64,000 bases of DNA from an uncultured Clostridia bacterium (GTDB lineage: Bacteria; Bacillota; Clostridia; TANB77; CAG-508): positions 143,758 to 207,757 of the forward strand of contig CALXET010000003.1 in the NCBI GenBank assembly GCA_944387405.1, read 5' to 3'. A program made the translations under genes and the position numbers. This document shows, piece by piece, positions 48,867 through 57,868 of this stretch. Within the stretch, counting starts at the first letter, position 1; each line of letters starts with the position of its first letter. The notes beneath the pieces were generated by a model, which did not search any database, was not told the DNA's origin, and was given only the letters and a program-made list of their open reading frames with translations.

Positions 48867-51800
48867 TCATACTATTTCAACATTATTTTCTCCAACAATT
48901 TCTTTAAATACATTTACAATCTCTTCTGTTAAATAAATTGCTCCACATGGTTTTACTTGAGCTTTGTCTACAACTTGAACTTTAACATTAACTCTATCTC
49001 CACTAAAGAACTTAATTGCCCCTCTTAATCTTTTTTTAGTTTTTTCATCTAGTTCAGTAATATCTATTTGCATTGTTGTATATCTTTTCTTTTGTTTATC
49101 AATTTCGTTTTCATTAAATTCTCTTATGTCTCTTACTACAATTTTAGGAGTATCATCTTCTTTTATACTTAATCTTCCATCTATTAATACAATATTTTCA
49201 TCAAAAAGAATATTACTTACTCTATTATATACACTATCGAATATTATTATTTCTACACTTCCATATAAATCTTCTACCGTAACAAATGCCATAATTGTAT
49301 TCTTCTTAGTATATTTTTTCTTTACAGAGGTTATTGTTCCAGCATATTTTACATTTTGTCCATCTTTAAAATTTGTATCACTGTCGTTATCTCCTATTTT
49401 CTTTAAATCTAATGAATTAATATTAGTATTTTTAATAATACTTTCTCTAATTGAATCTAAAGGGTGTCCTGATATATATATTCCAAGCATTTCTTTTTCT
49501 TGTGATAATAATTCTTTTTTATCAAGTTCTGGTAAAACTGTATAATTATATTTTATCTCATCTGACGCCTCATCTGATACTATATCAAACATAGTAACCT
49601 GATTTGCTAGCGAATTTCTATTCTGATTATTTATTGTATCTAATATTCCCTCAAATGAAGCTAAAAGAGTGTTTCTTGTCTGTTCCATATCATCAAAACA
49701 ACCTGCTTTAATAAGAGATTCTACACACTTTTTATTTATATTTTCATCTTTAATTCTTTCACAAAAATCAGTAAAACTCTTAAACTCTCCATTCTTATTT
49801 CTTTCATTTACAATATTATTTACAGCAGCTACACCAACATTTTTAATACTTCCCATTCCAAATCTTATCTTTCCATCTTGTACTGTAAATTTAGTAAAAC
49901 TTTTATTTATATTTGGTTTTAATATTTCTATATTTAATCTTCTGCATTCATCAATATATACAGGAACTTTATCTAAATTTCCTAAAAAACTATTTAATGT
50001 TGCTGCCATAAATTCTTCAGTATAATAATATTTTAAATATGCTGTCCTATATGATACTACAGAATATGCAGCAGCATGTGATTTATTAAAAGCATATTTT
50101 GCAAACTCTGCCATCTCATCAAATATCTTATTAGCAGATGCTTCATCTATACCGTTTCTTATACACCCTGGAACTATAATATTTCCATTTTCATCTACTT
50201 GTCCATGAATAAAATATTCTCTTTCTTTTGCCATTACATCTAACTTCTTCTTACCCATTGCTCTTCTTACTAAGTCAGCTCTACCTAGAGAATATCCTGC
50301 TAAATCTCTTACTATTTGCATAACTTGTTCTTGGTATACCATACAACCATAAGTTACATTTAATATTGGTTCTAATGCTGGATGAGTATATTCATTATGT
50401 CCTGGATGTCTCTTTCCTTTAATATACCTCGGAATTTGATCCATCGGACCTGGTCTATATAATGAAACACCAGCAATTATATCTTCTAAACAATCTGGCT
50501 TTAATTCTTTCATGAAATTAGTCATTCCTGCACTTTCAAATTGGAATATTCCGCATGTATTTCCATCTGCCCATTGTTTATAAACATTTTGATCATTCAT
50601 ATCTTTGTCAAATTCAACATTTATGCCTCTTGTTTGTTTAACAAGTTTTATACAATCTGATATAACAGTTAAAGTTCTTAATCCTAAAAAGTCCATCTTT
50701 AAAAGTCCAAGTTCTTCTAAAAGAGTCATTGTATATTGTGTTGAAACATTACCATCGTTCAAATATAGGGGTACATACGTATCTACTGGATCTTTTGTAA
50801 TTACTACTCCACAAGCATGTGTTGAAGCTTGTCTTGGAAGTCCTTCAAGTGAAATTGCAATATCTATTAATTGTTTAACATTTGGATCTGAATCATACCA
50901 TTCTTTAAGCTCTCTATTTTGCTCTAAAGCTTTTTTAATCGTTATATGAATCTCCATTGGAATCATTTTTGCAAGTTTATCTGTCTCAGAATATGGAAAA
51001 TCTAACACTCTTCCTACGTCTCTAATTACCATTCTTGCTGCCATTGTACCAAATGTTATAATTTGTGATACATGATCATTTCCATATTTTCTCCCAACAT
51101 AATCTATAACCTCTTGTCTTCTTTCATAGCAAAAATCAACATCAAAATCTGGCATACTAATTCTTTCAGGATTTAAAAATCTTTCAAAAATTAAATTATA
51201 CTTTATAGGATCTATGTCAGTTATTCCAATACAATATGCTGCCATAGAACCTGCACCTGATCCTCTTCCTGGTCCTACTGGAATTCCTACACTTTTAGCA
51301 TAATTTATAAAATCCCAAACTATTAAGAAATAATCTACATATCCCATCTTTTCAATTATTGAGATTTCATACTCTAATCTATCTTTTAATTCTTTAGATG
51401 GATTTTCTCCATATCTATTTTTAAAACCATCATAGCAAAGTTTTTTAAAGTAATCTGCATGTGTTGCAAACTCTTCTGGAACATCATAATTTGGAAGTTT
51501 TGTAACACCAAATTCAAAATCATAATTACATTTTTCTGCTATTTTTACTGTATTTGATACAGCTTCTGGTATGTTTTCAAAATAATCAGACATCTCTTCT
51601 TTAGATTTTATATAAAATTCATCTGTCTCAAATCTCATTCTGTCTTCATCAGACATCTTTTTACCTGTCTGAATACATAATAAAACTTCATGATTATATG
51701 CATCTTCTCTTTTTAAATAATGTGCATCATTCGTGCCAACTAATGGAATATCTAATTTTCTTGCAAGTTCTATTAATTTTTGATTTACCATTATTTGCTC

Positions 51801-52340
51801 TCTTAGTCCATTATTTTGAATTTCTATATAATAATCATCTTTAAATAAATTTTTATACCATAAAGCAATCTCTTCAGCTTTTTCCATATTATTTTGAATA
51901 ATAGCTTGTGGCACCTCTCCCGCTAAACATGCACTTAGACATACTAATCCTTCACTATATTTTTCAAGAATTTCTTTATCTATTCTTGGTTTATAATAAA
52001 AGCCTTCAACAAAAGAAAGGGATACTAGTTTAATTAAATTTTGATACCCTTTTTTATTTTTTACTAACAATATTAAATGATTATATCCTGCATCAATTGA
52101 AGCTTCTTTATCAAATCTAGTTCTTCTTGCTACATAAACTTCACATCCAATAATAGGTTTTATATCATTTTTCTTGCATTCCTTATAAAATTCAACTGCA
52201 CCATACATTACTCCATGATCAGTAAGAGCAATAGCATTCATACCAAGTTCTTTTGCTCTTTTAGGTAAATCTTTAATTCTACTCATTCCATCTAATAAAC
52301 TATATTCACTGTGGACATGTAAGTGCACAAAATCAGACAT
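48867..52340 (-). CDS. dnaE: DNA polymerase III alpha subunit (DnaE type)
   Basis: The N-terminal PHP domain starts HLHVHSEYSLLDG. The polymerase core and the C-terminal OB domain are present. The likely start is the ATG at 52338-52340 (MSDFVHLH) with the RBS AAGGAGAAGG. The track ORF extends upstream to 52373. Confidence 0.9.
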   Translation of the reverse strand: MSDFVHLHVHSEYSLLDGMSRIKDLPKRAKELGMNAIALTDHGVMYGAVEFYKECKKNDIKPIIGCEVYVARRTRFDKEASIDAGYNHLILLVKNKKGYQNLIKLVSLSFVEGFYYKPRIDKEILEKYSEGLVCLSACLAGEVPQAIIQNNMEKAEEIALWYKNLFKDDYYIEIQNNGLREQIMVNQKLIELARKLDIPLVGTNDAHYLKREDAYNHEVLLCIQTGKKMSDEDRMRFETDEFYIKSKEEMSDYFENIPEAVSNTVKIAEKCNYDFEFGVTKLPNYDVPEEFATHADYFKKLCYDGFKNRYGENPSKELKDRLEYEISIIEKMGYVDYFLIVWDFINYAKSVGIPVGPGRGSGAGSMAAYCIGITDIDPIKYNLIFERFLNPERISMPDFDVDFCYERRQEVIDYVGRKYGNDHVSQIITFGTMAARMVIRDVGRVLDFPYSETDKLAKMIPMEIHITIKKALEQNRELKEWYDSDPNVKQLIDIAISLEGLPRQASTHACGVVITKDPVDTYVPLYLNDGNVSTQYTMTLLEELGLLKMDFLGLRTLTVISDCIKLVKQTRGINVEFDKDMNDQNVYKQWADGNTCGIFQFESAGMTNFMKELKPDCLEDIIAGVSLYRPGPMDQIPRYIKGKRHPGHNEYTHPALEPILNVTYGCMVYQEQVMQIVRDLAGYSLGRADLVRRAMGKKKLDVMAKEREYFIHGQVDENGNIIVPGCIRNGIDEASANKIFDEMAEFAKYAFNKSHAAAYSVVSYRTAYLKYYYTEEFMAATLNSFLGNLDKVPVYIDECRRLNIEILKPNINKSFTKFTVQDGKIRFGMGSIKNVGVAAVNNIVNERNKNGEFKSFTDFCERIKDENINKKCVESLIKAGCFDDMEQTRNTLLASFEGILDTINNQNRNSLANQVTMFDIVSDEASDEIKYNYTVLPELDKKELLSQEKEMLGIYISGHPLDSIRESIIKNTNINSLDLKKIGDNDSDTNFKDGQNVKYAGTITSVKKKYTKKNTIMAFVTVEDLYGSVEIIIFDSVYNRVSNILFDENIVLIDGRLSIKEDDTPKIVVRDIREFNENEIDKQKKRYTTMQIDITELDEKTKKRLRGAIKFFSGDRVNVKVQVVDKAQVKPCGAIYLTEEIVNVFKEIVGENNVEIV

Positions 52341-52426
52341 AATCCTTCTCCTTTTTTTACGTAAATATATCACACTATCCCCAATTTATCAACATAATTT
52401 GGAAAGTTACAAACACTTAATTTTTC

Positions 52427-52953: not shown

Positions 52954-53694
52954 TTAATATTCAACCTTTACTAGATATAATCCATGTGGTGGCAAGGTCT
53001 TACCTGCTCTTTTTCTATCTTTTGATTCAATAATTTCAGGAATAGATTTTTCATCTATTTTTCCAAGTCCTACGTCTACTAGTGTCCCAGCAATTATTCT
53101 AACCATATTATATAAAAATCCGCTTCCCGTTAAAGAAATTATTATTCTATCTCCATCTTTTGTAACATCTGCATCAAAAATAGTTCTAACACTGCTTTTA
53201 CTACTTGTACCACTAGCTTTAAATCCTTTAAAATCATGTTCTCCTATAAAATGTTTTACTGCTTTTTTCATTTCTTCTACATTTAATTTTTGTGGCACAT
53301 GATATTCTAAGGCTCTATATATTGCTGTTCCAGTTTCTGAATTATTTATTACATATTTATATGTTTTTGATTTAACACAATATCTACTATGAAACCTTTC
53401 ATCGACTTCTTCTGCTGATTTTATTACAATACTCTTTTTTAATTTTGAATTAATTGCTATAGCAAATTTTTCTATTGGAATCTTATCATTATTAGTTACA
53501 AAATTTGCTGTCTGACCAAAACTATGTACACCTGCATCAGTTCTTCCAGAAGCTATTAAATTTACTTTTTCATCCCCTGTAACTTCGCAAATTGCCCTTT
53601 CAATTTCTCCTTGTATATTCAATTTATCTGGCTGTTTTTGCCATCCATTAAAATTCTTACCATCATATTCTATTATTAATTTAATATTTCTCAT
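52954..53694 (-). CDS. truA: tRNA pseudouridine(38-40) synthase
   Basis: 246 aa. The catalytic Asp context is IASGRTDAGVHSFGQ. The C-terminal LYNMVRIIAGTL is present. Confidence 0.9.
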   Translation of the reverse strand: MRNIKLIIEYDGKNFNGWQKQPDKLNIQGEIERAICEVTGDEKVNLIASGRTDAGVHSFGQTANFVTNNDKIPIEKFAIAINSKLKKSIVIKSAEEVDERFHSRYCVKSKTYKYVINNSETGTAIYRALEYHVPQKLNVEEMKKAVKHFIGEHDFKGFKASGTSSKSSVRTIFDADVTKDGDRIIISLTGSGFLYNMVRIIAGTLVDVGLGKIDEKSIPEIIESKDRKRAGKTLPPHGLYLVKVEY

Positions 53695-53870
53695 TTTATT
53701 AGTACCTCATATTTTAAATCTATCAAAAGCTATTATATTACATATTTATACCATTCTTAAGTCATTTTGTAAACAAATAAAAATTACAAATATCGTAATT
53801 AATTTATTTTAAGATAATAAATAAATCATCGGATCACCTTCTCTTGGCGACCCGACTTTATTCATCACAT

Positions 53871-54287
53871 TTAATGAATAATTTTATCAATGTAGAAATT
53901 TTTTAAATCTATAATATATTCCACATTGACAGGAGTTGATATTGCGCACTCTCTGAGCACCGCTTCGAAAAAACCAGTTTCTGCAGTAATACTGAGTTTG
54001 TTTTTTTCTCTTCCAAAAAATCTTTTTCTCGGATGAAACTTCTTGTTTTCCGGAGCATCTGCATTCTGCATTATTGACAGAACCTCACTATAGACGACTT
54101 TCTTTACAATAGAAGGTTCTTTCTTCATCCTCTGATTCCAGTACTCCACTTCACCTAAGTCATCCATAGCAGTTGCTCTCCAGAATTCGAGATTTTCTAA
54201 ATGATTCCGGCTAACACATTCTGCAAAAGCAGTAGCTACATCTTCTAAAGACTTTCCTTCAAAGATTCTTCCTTCTCTTCTTTCCAT
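53871..54287 (-). CDS. Hypothetical protein with a GC-rich N-terminal two-thirds (last gene of the three-gene cassette)
   Basis: 138 aa. The RBS is AAGGAGAAGG. The first roughly 300 nt are about 40% GC, against roughly 25% around it, by eye, and the 3' end reverts to AT-rich. No recognisable motif. Confidence 0.5.
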   Translation of the reverse strand: MERREGRIFEGKSLEDVATAFAECVSRNHLENLEFWRATAMDDLGEVEYWNQRMKKEPSIVKKVVYSEVLSIMQNADAPENKKFHPRKRFFGREKNKLSITAETGFFEAVLRECAISTPVNVEYIIDLKNFYIDKIIH

Positions 54288-54369
54288 ACATCCTTCTCCT
54301 TACTAAAGCATCTCTGTGACATGATTATTATATCATCAATACAATTTTTAATCAATTATGTAAACAGCT

Positions 54370-55068
54370 TTACTTGCTTAATATCCAATCTACAATTACT
54401 TTTTTTATTTCATAGTATTCTTGTTCTGTAAATTGCATATTAGCAATACAAAATCTTCTACTTGATATGTGAGAACAAAACATACATTCATATAAATTAT
54501 TACAATCTTGAATAAAATATGAATTTACTATTTTAGCAGAACATATTACATTATAACTATTAGAACAAGCTGTGGAATCATCTACTCTAATACAATTTAT
54601 TGAATTTCCTGTTCTTTGAGAAGCAATTACTCCTTCACAATCTCCACATCCATCTGAGAAAATCATGTTTTTACATTTTCTGCAATCTGTTGATCTAAAT
54701 ATATTTTCCGAATCATATATAGTATCACTTTCAGATACATTTATTGAATTATATATTCTCTCTGTCGTTGTAAAATTAATTCTATTCCATATATTTATTA
54801 TGTCTTCTAAAGACTTTATTTCTCTTTTAGAAACCATCCACCCTTTCGCTTTATCATATTTTCTCATTGTATCTTGCTTAATATATTTTTTAGAATTTTC
54901 CATTTCAGACCATGTTATTTCTCCTGTCACGCTGTCTTTAACTTGTTTTGGGAGTTTAACATCAAAAGCAAATTTTTCCTCTAGTTCCTCAATTGTAAAT
55001 GGACATTCTCTTCCAAATATATTAAAAAATACCTTTGAAATTTCTTTTTCTACTTCTAATCTATTCAT
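54370..55068 (-). CDS. Cys-rich hypothetical protein (multiple CxxC pairs in the C-terminal half; possible metal-binding domain)
   Basis: 232 aa. The C-terminal roughly 100 residues contain 14 Cys, including CRKC, CGDC and CMFC. The start ATG overlaps the stop of the upstream ATPase gene by 8 nt (ATGAATAG). Confidence 0.5.
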   Translation of the reverse strand: MNRLEVEKEISKVFFNIFGRECPFTIEELEEKFAFDVKLPKQVKDSVTGEITWSEMENSKKYIKQDTMRKYDKAKGWMVSKREIKSLEDIINIWNRINFTTTERIYNSINVSESDTIYDSENIFRSTDCRKCKNMIFSDGCGDCEGVIASQRTGNSINCIRVDDSTACSNSYNVICSAKIVNSYFIQDCNNLYECMFCSHISSRRFCIANMQFTEQEYYEIKKVIVDWILSK

Positions 55069-56947
55069 ATCTTATTTTTCTCCTACTCGTAGATTGTGAT
55101 TCCATTAATTTTTTTATATCAAACTTATTATCACCAATTTTAAATCCTATATTTTTTAATAACTTATTTTTTCTGTTATCATCTTTAGCATCTGGCTTCA
55201 TTAATATTTGATTTTTATTTTTGGGGATTGGTTTAAAATCTATTGTTCTAGCTCTAAATGCAGGAATAAGAACTCCATTTTTAGTTATTCTTACTATACA
55301 ATCTCTATTTGGTAGTTCTGTTAAAAGTTTAATCCTATTATGATATGTATTTTTTACCGCCATTTCCATTTGTAATTGATTATTTAAAATCATAGCATCT
55401 TCTCTAGAAATTCTAAATGAATAATAATTCATTACATTTGAAAAAATCGCATCTTGTAAATCTTCACTTATTTGTCCAAAATATTGCCCTGCAAGTATTA
55501 TTGACAAATTATATTTTCTAGCTTCAGAAAGTAAATTTTTAAGTATTGGATTTTCTACTACAGCAACTTCATCAATTATTAAAATTAAATGTTCTAAAAA
55601 AGCATGTCTTTGAACTAATTGAAATATTACTCCCATTATAAGTCCCGCTATTGTTTTAGTAACTTTTTCTCCAAGTTCTGCTTGATTTAAAGAAAATATA
55701 GTTAAAAAATTATTTCTAATCTCATTTTCAATGTTTTTTTCATTTTTTTCTCTAAAGCATGGCAACATTTGCATTTCATCAATAAGAGCAATTATCGGAG
55801 ATATAGCTTCAGTATATGAATTTGTCTTTATCTCATTAAAATCAGAACCAAAAAACTCTTTGATATGTGATTCTACATCATCAGATTCTCTTAACAATTT
55901 ATTTCTAAATTCAGTATCTATTATTAATTTTCTTAAATTTTCAAAATCTAATTTCTCCTTTTTAAGTAATAAATAAATACTATGTCTTAACACTCTTTCA
56001 AGCTTTGAATTAAATTCTTCTCCAAACACACTTTTTAATACAGTAAGTAATATTTCTGTTCCACTACTTACATTTTTATTTGAATTAATTAGGAGGTCAA
56101 CACTACTAGATTTTTTCTTCATATCAATTACTTGTGTTTCATCCAATCCACCTATATCATTTTCTATTGAACTATGTGGATCTATCATCACAATTTTGTA
56201 ATCTGCTTTAAAATTTTTATTATCATAAATATTTTTTATCATTTGCGCTATAAGTTTAGATTTTCCAGTTCCACTTCCACCTACTATCAATGAATGTTTA
56301 TCAAAATCATAATTTTCAATATTTAAAAAATATTTATTCTGTGAATATGGAAAAGTATTTACTTCTAGCATATTGTCTTTCTTTTCATCTGTTTCAAACA
56401 TATGTATAGATTTTTGAATTTGCAAATATTTACTTCCTTCTTTTACATATGAAAATCTAGTATGCTTTGAAAAATCAACACTAAGTTGAATATGAGGAAT
56501 AAAAAATATAGTTCTTCCTTTTGATTTATTCCCCCTTTCATGTTCAAAATATAATTTAGCCTTAGTAAAATAATTAGTTTTAGAAAAAGATGTAAAAGTA
56601 ATTTCAACTTGCTTTAAAAACTGTCTATATTTTGATTCATTTCTATCATAAATATCTACCAAGTTGTTTTCATATTTTCTTACTAAATATAAATATTCTA
56701 TTAAAGTCTTTTCTCTCTTAAAAGAATCTATTTTTTTTATCAGAAAACTACCTGAACAACTAAGAACAGTAGGAAGTTTTTTTCTAGATACTATATAATA
56801 TTTAATTACACTTCTTTCGATTTTTACATATAACTTCCAACTTCTAAAAAATCCATTTAGATTTGAAATCTCTAATAAAAATTTTAACCATTCATTTTCA
56901 TCTATATAGTCAGAAGTTAAATATATTTCATACATATATCTCTTCAT
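55061..56947 (-). CDS. P-loop NTPase of the FtsK/HerA/TraG (AAA-like, DUF87-type) superfamily with an uncharacterised N-terminal domain of about 220 aa
   Basis: 628 aa. The Walker A is SLIVGGSGTGKSKLI (about residues 220-234). The Walker B is HLILIIDEVAVVEN. No TM segments. Confidence 0.6.
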   Translation of the reverse strand: MKRYMYEIYLTSDYIDENEWLKFLLEISNLNGFFRSWKLYVKIERSVIKYYIVSRKKLPTVLSCSGSFLIKKIDSFKREKTLIEYLYLVRKYENNLVDIYDRNESKYRQFLKQVEITFTSFSKTNYFTKAKLYFEHERGNKSKGRTIFFIPHIQLSVDFSKHTRFSYVKEGSKYLQIQKSIHMFETDEKKDNMLEVNTFPYSQNKYFLNIENYDFDKHSLIVGGSGTGKSKLIAQMIKNIYDNKNFKADYKIVMIDPHSSIENDIGGLDETQVIDMKKKSSSVDLLINSNKNVSSGTEILLTVLKSVFGEEFNSKLERVLRHSIYLLLKKEKLDFENLRKLIIDTEFRNKLLRESDDVESHIKEFFGSDFNEIKTNSYTEAISPIIALIDEMQMLPCFREKNEKNIENEIRNNFLTIFSLNQAELGEKVTKTIAGLIMGVIFQLVQRHAFLEHLILIIDEVAVVENPILKNLLSEARKYNLSIILAGQYFGQISEDLQDAIFSNVMNYYSFRISREDAMILNNQLQMEMAVKNTYHNRIKLLTELPNRDCIVRITKNGVLIPAFRARTIDFKPIPKNKNQILMKPDAKDDNRKNKLLKNIGFKIGDNKFDIKKLMESQSTSRRKIRYE

Positions 56948-56987
56948 ACAGAATCACCATCTTAATATTACTACACAAATTAAAAAT

Positions 56988-57023
56988 AAGACTGACTTTT
57001 TCTGTATGAAAAAAATCAGTCTT
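56988..57023. terminator. Intrinsic terminator downstream of the AraC/GyrI gene (aagactgactttttc ... aaaaaaatcagtctt) that insulates the ATPase cassette
   Basis: An inverted repeat of about 14 bp with flanking T-runs on both strands, 40 nt upstream of the ATPase start. Confidence 0.5.
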
Positions 57024-57058
57024 AAATTTTTATTTATCATCTTTAATTTATTTTATAA

Positions 57059-57868
57059 TTAATTTTCTATTGGAATTAAAAACTCTACTATATTATCATG
57101 ATAATACTCTAGCTCTGGAAGCTCTCTAAATTTATATTTAGTACTAGGAATAAACTCTTTATAAAATCGTTGTGTCACATTTTGAATATCTTCAGTTTCT
57201 TGAGAGTTTATTTTAAATACAATCCATTTAGATTTTGGTATTACTATTTTAGAAAATCCTTTTTTATTTATTTTTTTATCAGTCAATACCCAATATGCAC
57301 ATTCTTTTTGATTAAATCTATCTTTATACGATGTCATCCCATAATTAAAATTATCATATATATCTTTATATTTCTTTTCTAAGTCTATCCATAATCTAGG
57401 AGCTATCTCTTTTATATGTCCTATATCTGTTTTTTCGCAAACACCATATAATATAAATTCATCCTTTTCTATAATACTATATTCTATACTCTGTCTTTGT
57501 TCTACGTTTTCATTAAATGATATTCTTGAAAAAACTTTTAATCCATCAGGATGTTTTTTTACCTGACTTGGTTTTATACCATGATATTTTTCAAATGCCC
57601 TTGAAAATGATGTTGCATTATTGTATTGATATTTTATTGCAATATCCATTACTGTTTCATTCGTATTATATAAATCATATCCTGCATTTGATAATCTTCT
57701 TTTTCTAATATATTCTGATATTGATATATTACACAAAACATAAAAAATATTTTGAGCAGAATATTCATTCATCTCTAAAATTTGTGATATTTTTTTATAA
57801 TCAATCTTATCTTCCAAATTACTTTCTATATAGTCTATTGCTTTGTTTAATAAAGTATAAATATTCAT
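57059..57868 (-). CDS. AraC-family transcriptional regulator with a C-terminal GyrI-like effector-binding domain
   Basis: 269 aa. The N-terminal AraC HTH is ISQILEMNEYSAQNIFYVLCNISISEYIRKRRLSNAGYDL...YNNATSFSRAFEKYHGIKPSQ. The C-terminal half fits the GyrI-like fold. Confidence 0.7.
   Translation of the reverse strand: MNIYTLLNKAIDYIESNLEDKIDYKKISQILEMNEYSAQNIFYVLCNISISEYIRKRRLSNAGYDLYNTNETVMDIAIKYQYNNATSFSRAFEKYHGIKPSQVKKHPDGLKVFSRISFNENVEQRQSIEYSIIEKDEFILYGVCEKTDIGHIKEIAPRLWIDLEKKYKDIYDNFNYGMTSYKDRFNQKECAYWVLTDKKINKKGFSKIVIPKSKWIVFKINSQETEDIQNVTQRFYKEFIPSTKYKFRELPELEYYHDNIVEFLIPIEN

Follow-up and report, generated by a model that had tools for sequence, protein, structure and literature searches.

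A conserved gene pair for a VirB4/HerA-clade ATPase and a predicted beta-solenoid protein, with an adjacent AraC/GyrI-type regulator gene, in an uncultured Clostridia bacterium

ATPases of the HerA/VirB4 clade drive DNA repair, conjugation, secretion, and many defence systems; to our knowledge, each new partner of such an ATPase has so far revealed a new mechanism. The VirB4, VirD4, and EssC types act on protein substrates or pilins, and the MADS defence system is encoded by an operon of eight genes that includes a methyltransferase gene. GyrI-like domains, as in BmrR, Rob, and SbmC, are multidrug- or effector-binding modules. Here, we describe a locus that combines an ATPase of this clade, a partner protein with a predicted beta-solenoid fold, and a regulator with a GyrI-like domain. 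It was found in the genome of an uncultured Clostridia bacterium (assembly GCA_944387405.1, contig CALXET010000003.1), in a stretch of 64,000 nucleotides (nt; positions 143,758 to 207,757 of the contig) that is called the window below. The ATPase/beta-solenoid pair is undescribed, and full-text literature searches retrieved no description of it. Our preferred reading, to which we give a probability of about 0.6, is that the ATPase and the beta-solenoid protein form a regulated and inherited module, and not a defence system or a mobile remnant; anti-phage defence and a remnant of conjugation are poorly supported.

An earlier note, made from the sequence of this DNA alone, had reported three minus-strand open reading frames (ORFs) of 628, 232, and 138 amino acids (aa), and all three were confirmed, coordinates included. 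The note took them for a self-contained unit of three genes that had been inserted as a cassette between truA and an AraC/GyrI regulator gene. This view was not upheld: the regulator gene belongs to the conserved unit in 69 loci, the 138-aa ORF lies outside of it, and the locus is syntenic with truA in relatives at about 60-90% protein identity. Co-localization in other genomes was found for the ATPase and the partner gene, but not for the third gene. In agreement with the note, neither protein of the pair could be matched to a described system with Pfam, PADLOC, NCBIfam, or the PDB.

Conservation and inheritance of the gene trio

For the neighbourhood survey, one genome per GTDB species was scanned, and a relative of the partner protein was found in 401 genomes. 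The best 80 loci were analyzed by tblastn and ORF clustering, and the family counts were made over 82 loci (single loci are denoted by L numbers). Three families turned out to be conserved around the pair, the Cys-rich partner in 81 loci, the ATPase in 80, and the AraC/GyrI regulator in 69. Their genes lie on the same strand in the order AraC/GyrI, ATPase, partner, and in the 69 loci the regulator orthologue (46-68% identity) is situated directly upstream of the ATPase gene. One or two genes separate the regulator from the ATPase in three loci, and the regulator has no place beside the ATPase in four. No further family exceeded 14 of the 82 loci, and those that were scanned with Pfam were housekeeping families (S-adenosylmethionine synthetase, diacylglycerol kinase, ABC transporter). 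The module spans positions 54370-57868 of the window and comprises the regulator gene, a cis-element, the ATPase gene, and the beta-solenoid gene, whereas the 138-aa gene is a passenger.

The two genes of the pair are tightly linked. The ATG of the partner gene overlaps the stop codon of the ATPase gene by 8 nt (ATGAATAG, 55061-55068) and is preceded by an AGGAG ribosome-binding site. Across the loci, the distance from the ATPase gene to the partner gene is most often -8 or -4 nt, which bears out the tight coupling that had been proposed from the single overlap. The Firmicute version of the module contains a single partner gene.

Several observations bear on the origin of the module. Relatives with about 60-90% protein identity share the order AraC-ATPase-Cys-truA and also keep cdaA and Cof, and the order of the trio recurs in a 51%-identical relative with wholly different other neighbours. 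Between relatives, the identity of the module proteins is 61-74% versus 70-88% for the flanking housekeeping proteins, and the two values track each other. The GC content and the GC content at third codon positions (GC3) of the regulator, ATPase, and partner genes equal those of the genome itself. Taken together, synteny, native composition, and the parallel divergence of the flanking genes point to vertical inheritance of the module, not to its insertion. The closest relative is a circular metagenome-assembled genome (MAG) of 1.8 Mb (OZ006973.1), whose flanking proteins show 90-96% identity. For the ATPase, more than 1,700 homologues were found, and for the partner 967; they are mostly full-length, 50-66% identical, and from uncultured gut Bacillota; an exhaustive HMMER search with the partner yielded 359 clusters at 50% identity.

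The ATPase and its partner protein

Both nucleotide-binding motifs named in the earlier note are present in the ATPase, Walker A (GGSGTGKS) at residues 223-230 and Walker B (LILIIDE) at 454-460. They are followed by an arginine-finger motif, EARKYN, at residue 475 and by a C-terminal tail, SQSTSRRK, at residue 617. Walker A, Walker B, and E-x-R-K-Y are invariant, even in orthologues of 24-31% identity, and the same is true within the family for the N-terminal W20 and the motif R-E-C-I-V-R...P-x-[FK]-K-A-K-T. The tail, M-x-SQSTSRRK, is conserved in Firmicute ATPases. Profiles and fold searches agreed with the assignment to the FtsK/HerA/TraG superfamily of P-loop NTPases: the protein has a P-loop domain, the Walker A and B motifs (the latter with DE), E-x-R-K-[YF], and a match to DUF87/HerA above the cut-off. 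The N-terminus, which had been described as 220 unrecognized aa, includes about 160 aa that form a separate alpha/beta domain of their own and were confidently modelled.

The similarity to described families is restricted. In Pfam, DUF87/HerA and TrwB_AAD_bind were just above their cut-offs and TraG-D_C was subthreshold, and the TrwB match is limited to the P-loop (31 residues). The best PADLOC match was mad8 (2e-17), the HerA models being weak, and PHROG 5156 matched at 1e-16. The NCBIfam model HerA_antiphage reached 21.8 bits versus a cut-off of 800, and a sequence search of the PDB matched the HerA P-loop region alone. The neighbours by fold were VirB4, DndH/DptH, TrwB, HerA, HerA-DUF, HerA-Sir2, TdpA, DotL, and Cag5, and a fold search of BFVD revealed nothing significant. 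No transmembrane (TM) segment was found in the ATPase, the maximal 19-residue Kyte-Doolittle mean being 1.52 in an internal core helix (433-451). The N-terminal anchor typical of coupling proteins is absent, and the alpha/beta domain that takes its place is soluble. Neither the ATPase nor the partner has a signal peptide. The ATPase is basic, with an isoelectric point (pI) of 9.4. A tblastn search of phages and plasmids found remote matches to the ATPase only, with at most about 26% identity in plasmids, and the context of the best one, on a Sulfitobacter plasmid, was uninformative. In summary, the protein is a soluble, probably catalytically active ATPase of the VirB4/VirD4/HerA/DptH clade that forms a family of its own.

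The partner protein contains 12 cysteines, not the 14 counted before. Eleven of them are indeed in the C-terminal half, and there are only three CxxC pairs, C129/132, C141/144, and C195/198. In an alignment of 38 members, C207 was invariant, C198 was conserved in at least 90%, and the other cysteines alternated with serine, so that they are not conserved metal ligands; in the consensus of longer forms of 525 aa, the named members of which are archaeal, C207 is replaced by alanine. A CxxC zinc site is thus not supported by the sequences, because Cys and Ser interchange across the family, and for the same reason a disulphide ladder seems unlikely. Neither the partner nor ten diverse relatives matched a family in Pfam, NCBIfam, or PADLOC, and profiles for pentapeptide repeats and hexapeptide repeats (left-handed beta-helices) did not match the partner. 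Sequence searches for it in the PDB and among phages and plasmids (tblastn) also yielded no homologue.

The best structural match to the model of the partner was the beetle antifreeze protein TmAFP, which is of the narrow type with 12 residues per turn. With moderate confidence, the model divides the partner into a domain of about 100 aa at the N-terminus, a C-terminal helix, and between them a narrow beta-solenoid (about residues 99-213) whose interior is lined by Cys and Ser. This helix is amphipathic and conserved. The protein is mildly acidic, the solenoid having 13 acidic and 10 basic residues and a pI of about 5, and it has no TM segment; it is predicted to be cytoplasmic. Between relatives, the partner was 57-78% identical where the ATPase was 47-72% identical, which shows strong purifying selection. 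A role of the partner as a DNA mimic was considered and rejected on the basis of charge and coil width. As a separate observation, a 144-aa ORF runs antisense to the beta-solenoid gene (window 54665-55099, plus strand), which is probably an artefact of AT-rich sequence.

The partner family also includes tandem-duplicated forms of about 525 aa. A metagenome scan for this form detected 453 loci, and 81 of them were taken into the ORF analysis. One such protein, P0315 from a Micrarchaeota MAG, is encoded directly after an orthologous ATPase of 559 aa (28% identity, E 8e-46), with two further paralogues downstream and a double AsnC-type regulator upstream. The 525-aa forms are found in tandem arrays of up to 7-9 paralogues, with HTH_10 and AsnC regulators in or beside the arrays. 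About 20 of the 81 loci, among them most of those with long arrays, have a single DUF87/TrwB-type ATPase gene next to the array. Arrays of six to nine paralogues (250-aa and 530-aa forms) beside one ATPase, with embedded HTH_10 regulators, were noticed in L114, L129, L135, L109, L118, and L177, and some contigs carry two separate arrays (L123 with L163, L158 with L171).

Organism names exist for six distant single-domain relatives, that is, one Candidatus Dojkabacteria, one Patescibacteria group bacterium of the candidate phyla radiation (CPR), two Micrarchaeota, and two entries named "uncultured archaeon". The examples named as Micrarchaeota, Patescibacteria, and Dojkabacteria share the gene order of ATPase first and beta-helix protein second, and each has a different transcription factor next to the pair. 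Because the names are limited to these six, a link to lineages with reduced genomes should be taken as a lead and not as a result. Three further loci were assumed to be CPR-like. The first has genes for a flavodoxin, the ATPase, and the beta-helix protein beside rpsG/rpsL/rpoBC on a contig of 1.22 Mb. The second has a gene for a helix-turn-helix (HTH) protein, the ATPase gene, and then seven tandem paralogues. In the third, a divergent MerR gene precedes the ATPase gene and a beta-helix gene with a 4-nt overlap, again beside rpoBC, and no GyrI-like domain was detected in the C-terminal region of this MerR neighbour. In three CPR-like genomes (L175, L179, and L091), the pair, or the beta-helix gene alone, is located beside rpoBC or rpsL-rpsG-fusA, which suggests a conserved position in the core genome there as well. 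Judging from the sequences of these loci, the putative ancient core of the module is one ATPase with one or more beta-solenoid genes, and the family of the adjacent transcription factor varies by lineage.

The cis-element, the regulator, and neighbouring features

A terminator had been proposed upstream of the ATPase gene. A hairpin with a T-run was indeed found there (57024-56987), and it is one of two terminator-like sites within 4.5 kb, the other being at 53856-53828, versus 0.3 expected from shuffled sequences. However, the site is also a palindrome of conserved sequence that keeps a constant distance of 20 nt to a -10 box. For 66-68 distinct loci, the sequences preceding the ATPase gene were aligned with GTCAGT as an anchor, and AAACTGAC-N18-GTCAGT was present at fixed spacing throughout. 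The aligned pattern is AAACTGA(C/T)-N18-GTCAGT followed by a T-run, with TCAGT of the right arm in 66 of 66 loci. A -10 consensus, TAtAaT, follows GTCAGT at exactly +20 nt in 56 of 66 loci and is preceded by an enrichment of T and G, often as TG; then come the ribosome-binding site GGTGA and the start codon. At this spot, the 9-mer AAAGTCAGT was found in 60 of 75 loci, compared to about 11 unrelated matches in 1.03 Mb of locus DNA and a single occurrence elsewhere in the window. The hexamer TAATAT of the present locus is thus predicted to be part of the promoter of the ATPase operon.

Two functions of the palindrome have to be distinguished. As an RNA, the hairpin is 88% paired and its core of 6 bp is never broken; 14 of 42 sequences have C-to-U wobbles in the left arm, and compensatory AU/GC changes were seen at one pair. 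These features make it very probable that the hairpin terminates the regulator transcript. A search for a matching RNA family gave only chance matches. In a subgroup of loci, a closer second copy, ACTGAT, does the pairing, yet the distal ACTGAC is kept at its fixed spacing, and the palindrome stays with the ATPase promoter where inserted genes displace the AraC gene (L043, L079, L082). L063 has neither the regulator nor the element. The invariance of the sequence at about 50% protein identity, the retained distal ACTGAC, and the element following the promoter point to a site of sequence-specific recognition, overlapping the -35 position, beyond the role as a terminator.

The adjacent AraC/GyrI protein would be the obvious candidate for binding this site. 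Its Pfam matches were HTH_18 (55.5 bits, cut-off 33.6, 7e-15) and HTH_AraC (27.0 bits, cut-off 26.6) for DNA binding, and GyrI-like (45.4 bits, cut-off 26, 1e-11) and Cass2 (46.4 bits, cut-off 27, 6e-12) for the effector domain. By these profiles, the protein is a regulator of the Rob-like AraC/XylS type, with a predicted dual-HTH DNA-binding domain and a GyrI-like effector domain.

Table 1. Coordinates of the module and of neighbouring features in the window
Feature	Position	Strand	Basis or remark
AraC-type HTH and GyrI-like/Cass2 effector-binding regulator, 269 aa	57059..57868	-	Pfam; third conserved member
Conserved palindrome/hairpin AAGACTGAT-N-GTCAGTCTT with T-run	56987..57024	-	terminator scan; regulator terminator, probable operator
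Right half-site GTCAGT	56996-56991	-	part of the palindrome
-10-like hexamer TAATAT, 20 nt downstream of GTCAGT	56965..56970	-	predicted ATPase-operon promoter
Ribosome-binding site GGTGA of the ATPase gene	56958-56954	-	sequence reading
P-loop ATPase, 628 aa	55061..56947	-	soluble VirB4/TrwB/HerA/DptH clade
Partner protein, 232 aa	54370..55068	-	predicted N-domain, Cys/Ser-rich solenoid, and C-terminal helix
Orphan gene, 138 aa	53871..54287	-	lineage-specific, outside the conserved module
Intrinsic terminator closing the unit, upstream of truA	53828..53856	-	11-bp stem with 6 GC pairs, T-run

The 138-aa orphan is compositionally odd, as had been noticed, but the GC content of its first 300 nt is about 37% (0.373) and not 40%. 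Over the whole gene it is 0.357 versus 0.26 in the window, and GC3 is 0.30 versus 0.11-0.15 in the neighbouring genes. Among 5.8 billion proteins, the orphan matched only its own 99% cluster. It was absent from all other loci except that of the closest MAG (L009, 8772-9209), and there was no match in phages or plasmids. The homologue in L009 is an intact ORF of 52% identity with an in-frame indel of 6 nt, which argues for a real coding gene; the contrast to the 90-96% identity of the flanking proteins suggests very fast evolution or allelic replacement. A promoter-like site with a TG element (TTGATT-17-TATAAT) precedes the orphan at 54355-54327, and there is no terminator between it and the upstream operon, so that here it is in the same transcription unit. 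A structured RNA under the GC-rich part was also considered and discarded: Rfam found nothing over the window at gathering thresholds, a search of 53650-54420 at E<=1 gave only a chance match to CsrB, and there were no tRNA or tmRNA genes. We read the orphan as a real, fast-evolving, probably acquired coding gene that occupies the slot before truA. By composition and distribution, it is a putatively foreign, unrelated addition made recently in this species.

In 61%-identical relatives, no ORF lies between the beta-solenoid gene and truA (L002 10585-10953; also L003, L004, and L011). A promoter-like site, TTGACA-17-TATAAT, and after it a GC-rich hairpin and a T-run were seen in this slot, which may encode a small transcript. 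In three to four independent assemblies of a related species, dnaE is split in the gene calls into a 204-aa PHP domain and a 929-aa protein, with a gap of 71 nt (L002 12550-16024); in the window, dnaE is a single ORF of 1168 aa with a GTG start (48867-52373).

Interpretation and comparison with known systems

In the proposed mechanism, the GyrI-like domain of the Rob-like AraC/GyrI regulator would bind a small molecule, and the ligand-bound regulator would turn on the operon by acting at the palindrome. The palindrome would both end the regulator transcript and overlap the -35 position of a promoter that is driven by its -10 box. The two-gene operon would yield a hexameric-type ATPase of the VirB4/HerA clade and a translationally coupled beta-solenoid protein, which could assemble in a fixed stoichiometry. 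The ATPase would spend ATP on moving or remodelling a polymer, either DNA or protein, and the beta-solenoid protein might be its adaptor, its substrate, or its working partner. Ligand control, operator function, complex formation, and the substrate of the motor are what we infer from the sequences.

Four other explanations were weighed. An anti-phage defence system of the HerA-ATPase-plus-effector type, with the ATPase detecting foreign DNA and the beta-solenoid protein serving as effector or sensor, would agree with mad8 (2e-17) and the HerA models as the best matches in defence libraries and with DndH/DptH, HerA-DUF, HerA-Sir2, and TdpA among the fold neighbours. In addition, the tandem arrays of archaea and CPR resemble diversifying conflict systems, and two archaeal loci have HicA or a weak AbiEii-like match as a neighbour. 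We nevertheless regard defence as unlikely. None of the other seven MADS genes is present, folds or motifs of a nuclease, Sir2, TIR, or another effector were not found in the partner, and the neighbours are housekeeping genes that differ between lineages, with no other defence gene conserved nearby. No phage, plasmid, type IV secretion system (T4SS), or defence-island context was found across the examined loci, and the likeness to a defence module that the earlier note had put forward is limited to the ATPase family and to the expansion of paralogues in archaea and CPR. The conserved chromosomal position among relatives, the native composition, the strong purifying selection on the partner, and the location beside rpoBC and the str operon in CPR-like genomes also speak against it. 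The second proposal of the note, a conjugative-element remnant consisting of a decayed VirD4/TraG coupling protein and leftover genes, fared worse and is effectively refuted. It could draw on the TrwB_AAD_bind and TraG-D_C matches and on TrwB, DotL, and Cag5 among the fold neighbours. However, the TrwB match is confined to the P-loop, and there are no N-terminal TM helices. More than 80 Firmicute loci contained no T4SS, relaxase, or integrase genes, and no T4SS or relaxase association was seen in the distant archaeal and CPR-like loci either. The plasmid matches of the ATPase are remote, no homologue of the partner turned up in plasmids or phages, and in hundreds of species the ORFs have stayed intact under selection.

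It is also conceivable, if improbable, that the ATPase is a motor that loads, exports, or polymerizes beta-solenoid proteins as its cargo, which might form a filament, a needle, or a secreted product. This would explain how one ATPase serves arrays of up to 7-9 paralogues, and it would be in line with the VirB4/VirD4/EssC-type relatives that act on proteins or pilins and with the tandem-duplicated 525-aa forms; the conserved amphipathic C-terminal helix of the partner could be a recognition signal. However, neither protein has a signal peptide or a TM segment, the examined loci have no conserved membrane channel or further component in the vicinity, and the Firmicute version has only one partner gene. 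Very unlikely, in our view, is an inducible target protection or detoxification, in which a beta-helix protein, assisted by an NTPase, would shield a DNA enzyme from a xenobiotic, with a GyrI-like drug sensor as the switch. The analogy would be to MfpA/MfpB or Qnr. The binding properties of GyrI-like domains, the predicted beta-helix fold, the basic ATPase, and the MerR-family regulator adjacent in one CPR locus would fit. However, a solenoid with 12 residues per turn is too thin to mimic B-DNA and only mildly acidic, there is no pentapeptide-repeat match in Pfam, and the C-terminal region of the MerR protein has no GyrI-like match.

Several points weigh against the regulated, inherited module that we favor. 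The beta-solenoid model of the partner has a predicted local distance difference test score (pLDDT) of 63.7, with values below 50 for residues 172-205, and is therefore of moderate confidence only. The toxin-antitoxin-like genes adjoining some archaeal arrays would fit a conflict system. Three loci (L026, L029, L031) keep ACTGAC-N18-GTCAGT without an adjacent AraC/GyrI gene and have a diacylglycerol-kinase-like gene upstream instead, which makes the link between the AraC protein and the operator circumstantial. Furthermore, the palindrome behaves like an ordinary RNA hairpin, and because it tolerates wobbles and shows compensatory changes, its role may be that of a terminator alone.

A wider, rather doubtful idea is that the module is a cytoplasmic machine of prokaryotes with reduced genomes (Patescibacteria/CPR, DPANN Micrarchaeota, and small-genome gut Firmicutes), whose motor assembles, remodels, or delivers solenoids. 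If this were true, the solenoid arrays, with up to nine paralogues and more than 1% of some sub-megabase genomes, would serve a host- or community-dependent lifestyle, with environmental small molecules as the switch. Apart from this idea, the partner family has no library entry and appears to be anciently and tightly linked to one motor in bacteria and archaea, and the genes that are retained in very small genomes, as in the named distant relatives, tend to matter. The putative ligand-sensing regulator and the sharply defined cis-element of the Firmicutes offer an experimental handle by which the function can be tested. Genome annotations should list the locus neither as a defence island nor as a remnant of a mobile element.

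The module differs from each of the known systems that it resembles. In contrast to the two-gene HerA modules (HerA-NurA, HerA-Sir2/Nezha, HerA-DUF4297), the partner is a predicted beta-solenoid without a nuclease or NADase fold, the N-domain of the ATPase is not recognizable as a HAS barrel by sequence, the sequence likeness is confined to the P-loop region, and the module has an AraC/GyrI regulator of its own and keeps its position in the chromosome. Unlike VirB4/VirD4 (TrwB, TraG), the ATPase has no membrane anchor, and it occurs without T4SS, relaxase, or pilin genes and outside of a context of plasmids or integrative and conjugative elements. DndH/DptH, SspH, and mad8 of MADS are accompanied by dndFG, dptFG, ssp, mad1-7, or methyltransferase genes, none of which is a companion here, and the ATPase is far smaller than DptH/SspH. 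The likeness of the partner to TmAFP, narrow Cys-ladder beta-helices, bactofilins, and TBCC/CAP/RP2 rests on a model of moderate confidence and is not accompanied by a sequence relationship, and in contrast to the TmAFP type the protein is probably cytoplasmic, comes from an anaerobe, and has additional N- and C-terminal elements. The regulator is closest to what is known: it shares the HTH_18/HTH_AraC plus GyrI-like/Cass2 architecture of the Rob-type AraC/XylS regulators, and its candidate site overlaps the -35 region as in class II Mar/Sox/Rob promoters, but this site is a palindrome, ACTGAC-N18-GTCAGT, that would double as a terminator, instead of an asymmetric marbox.

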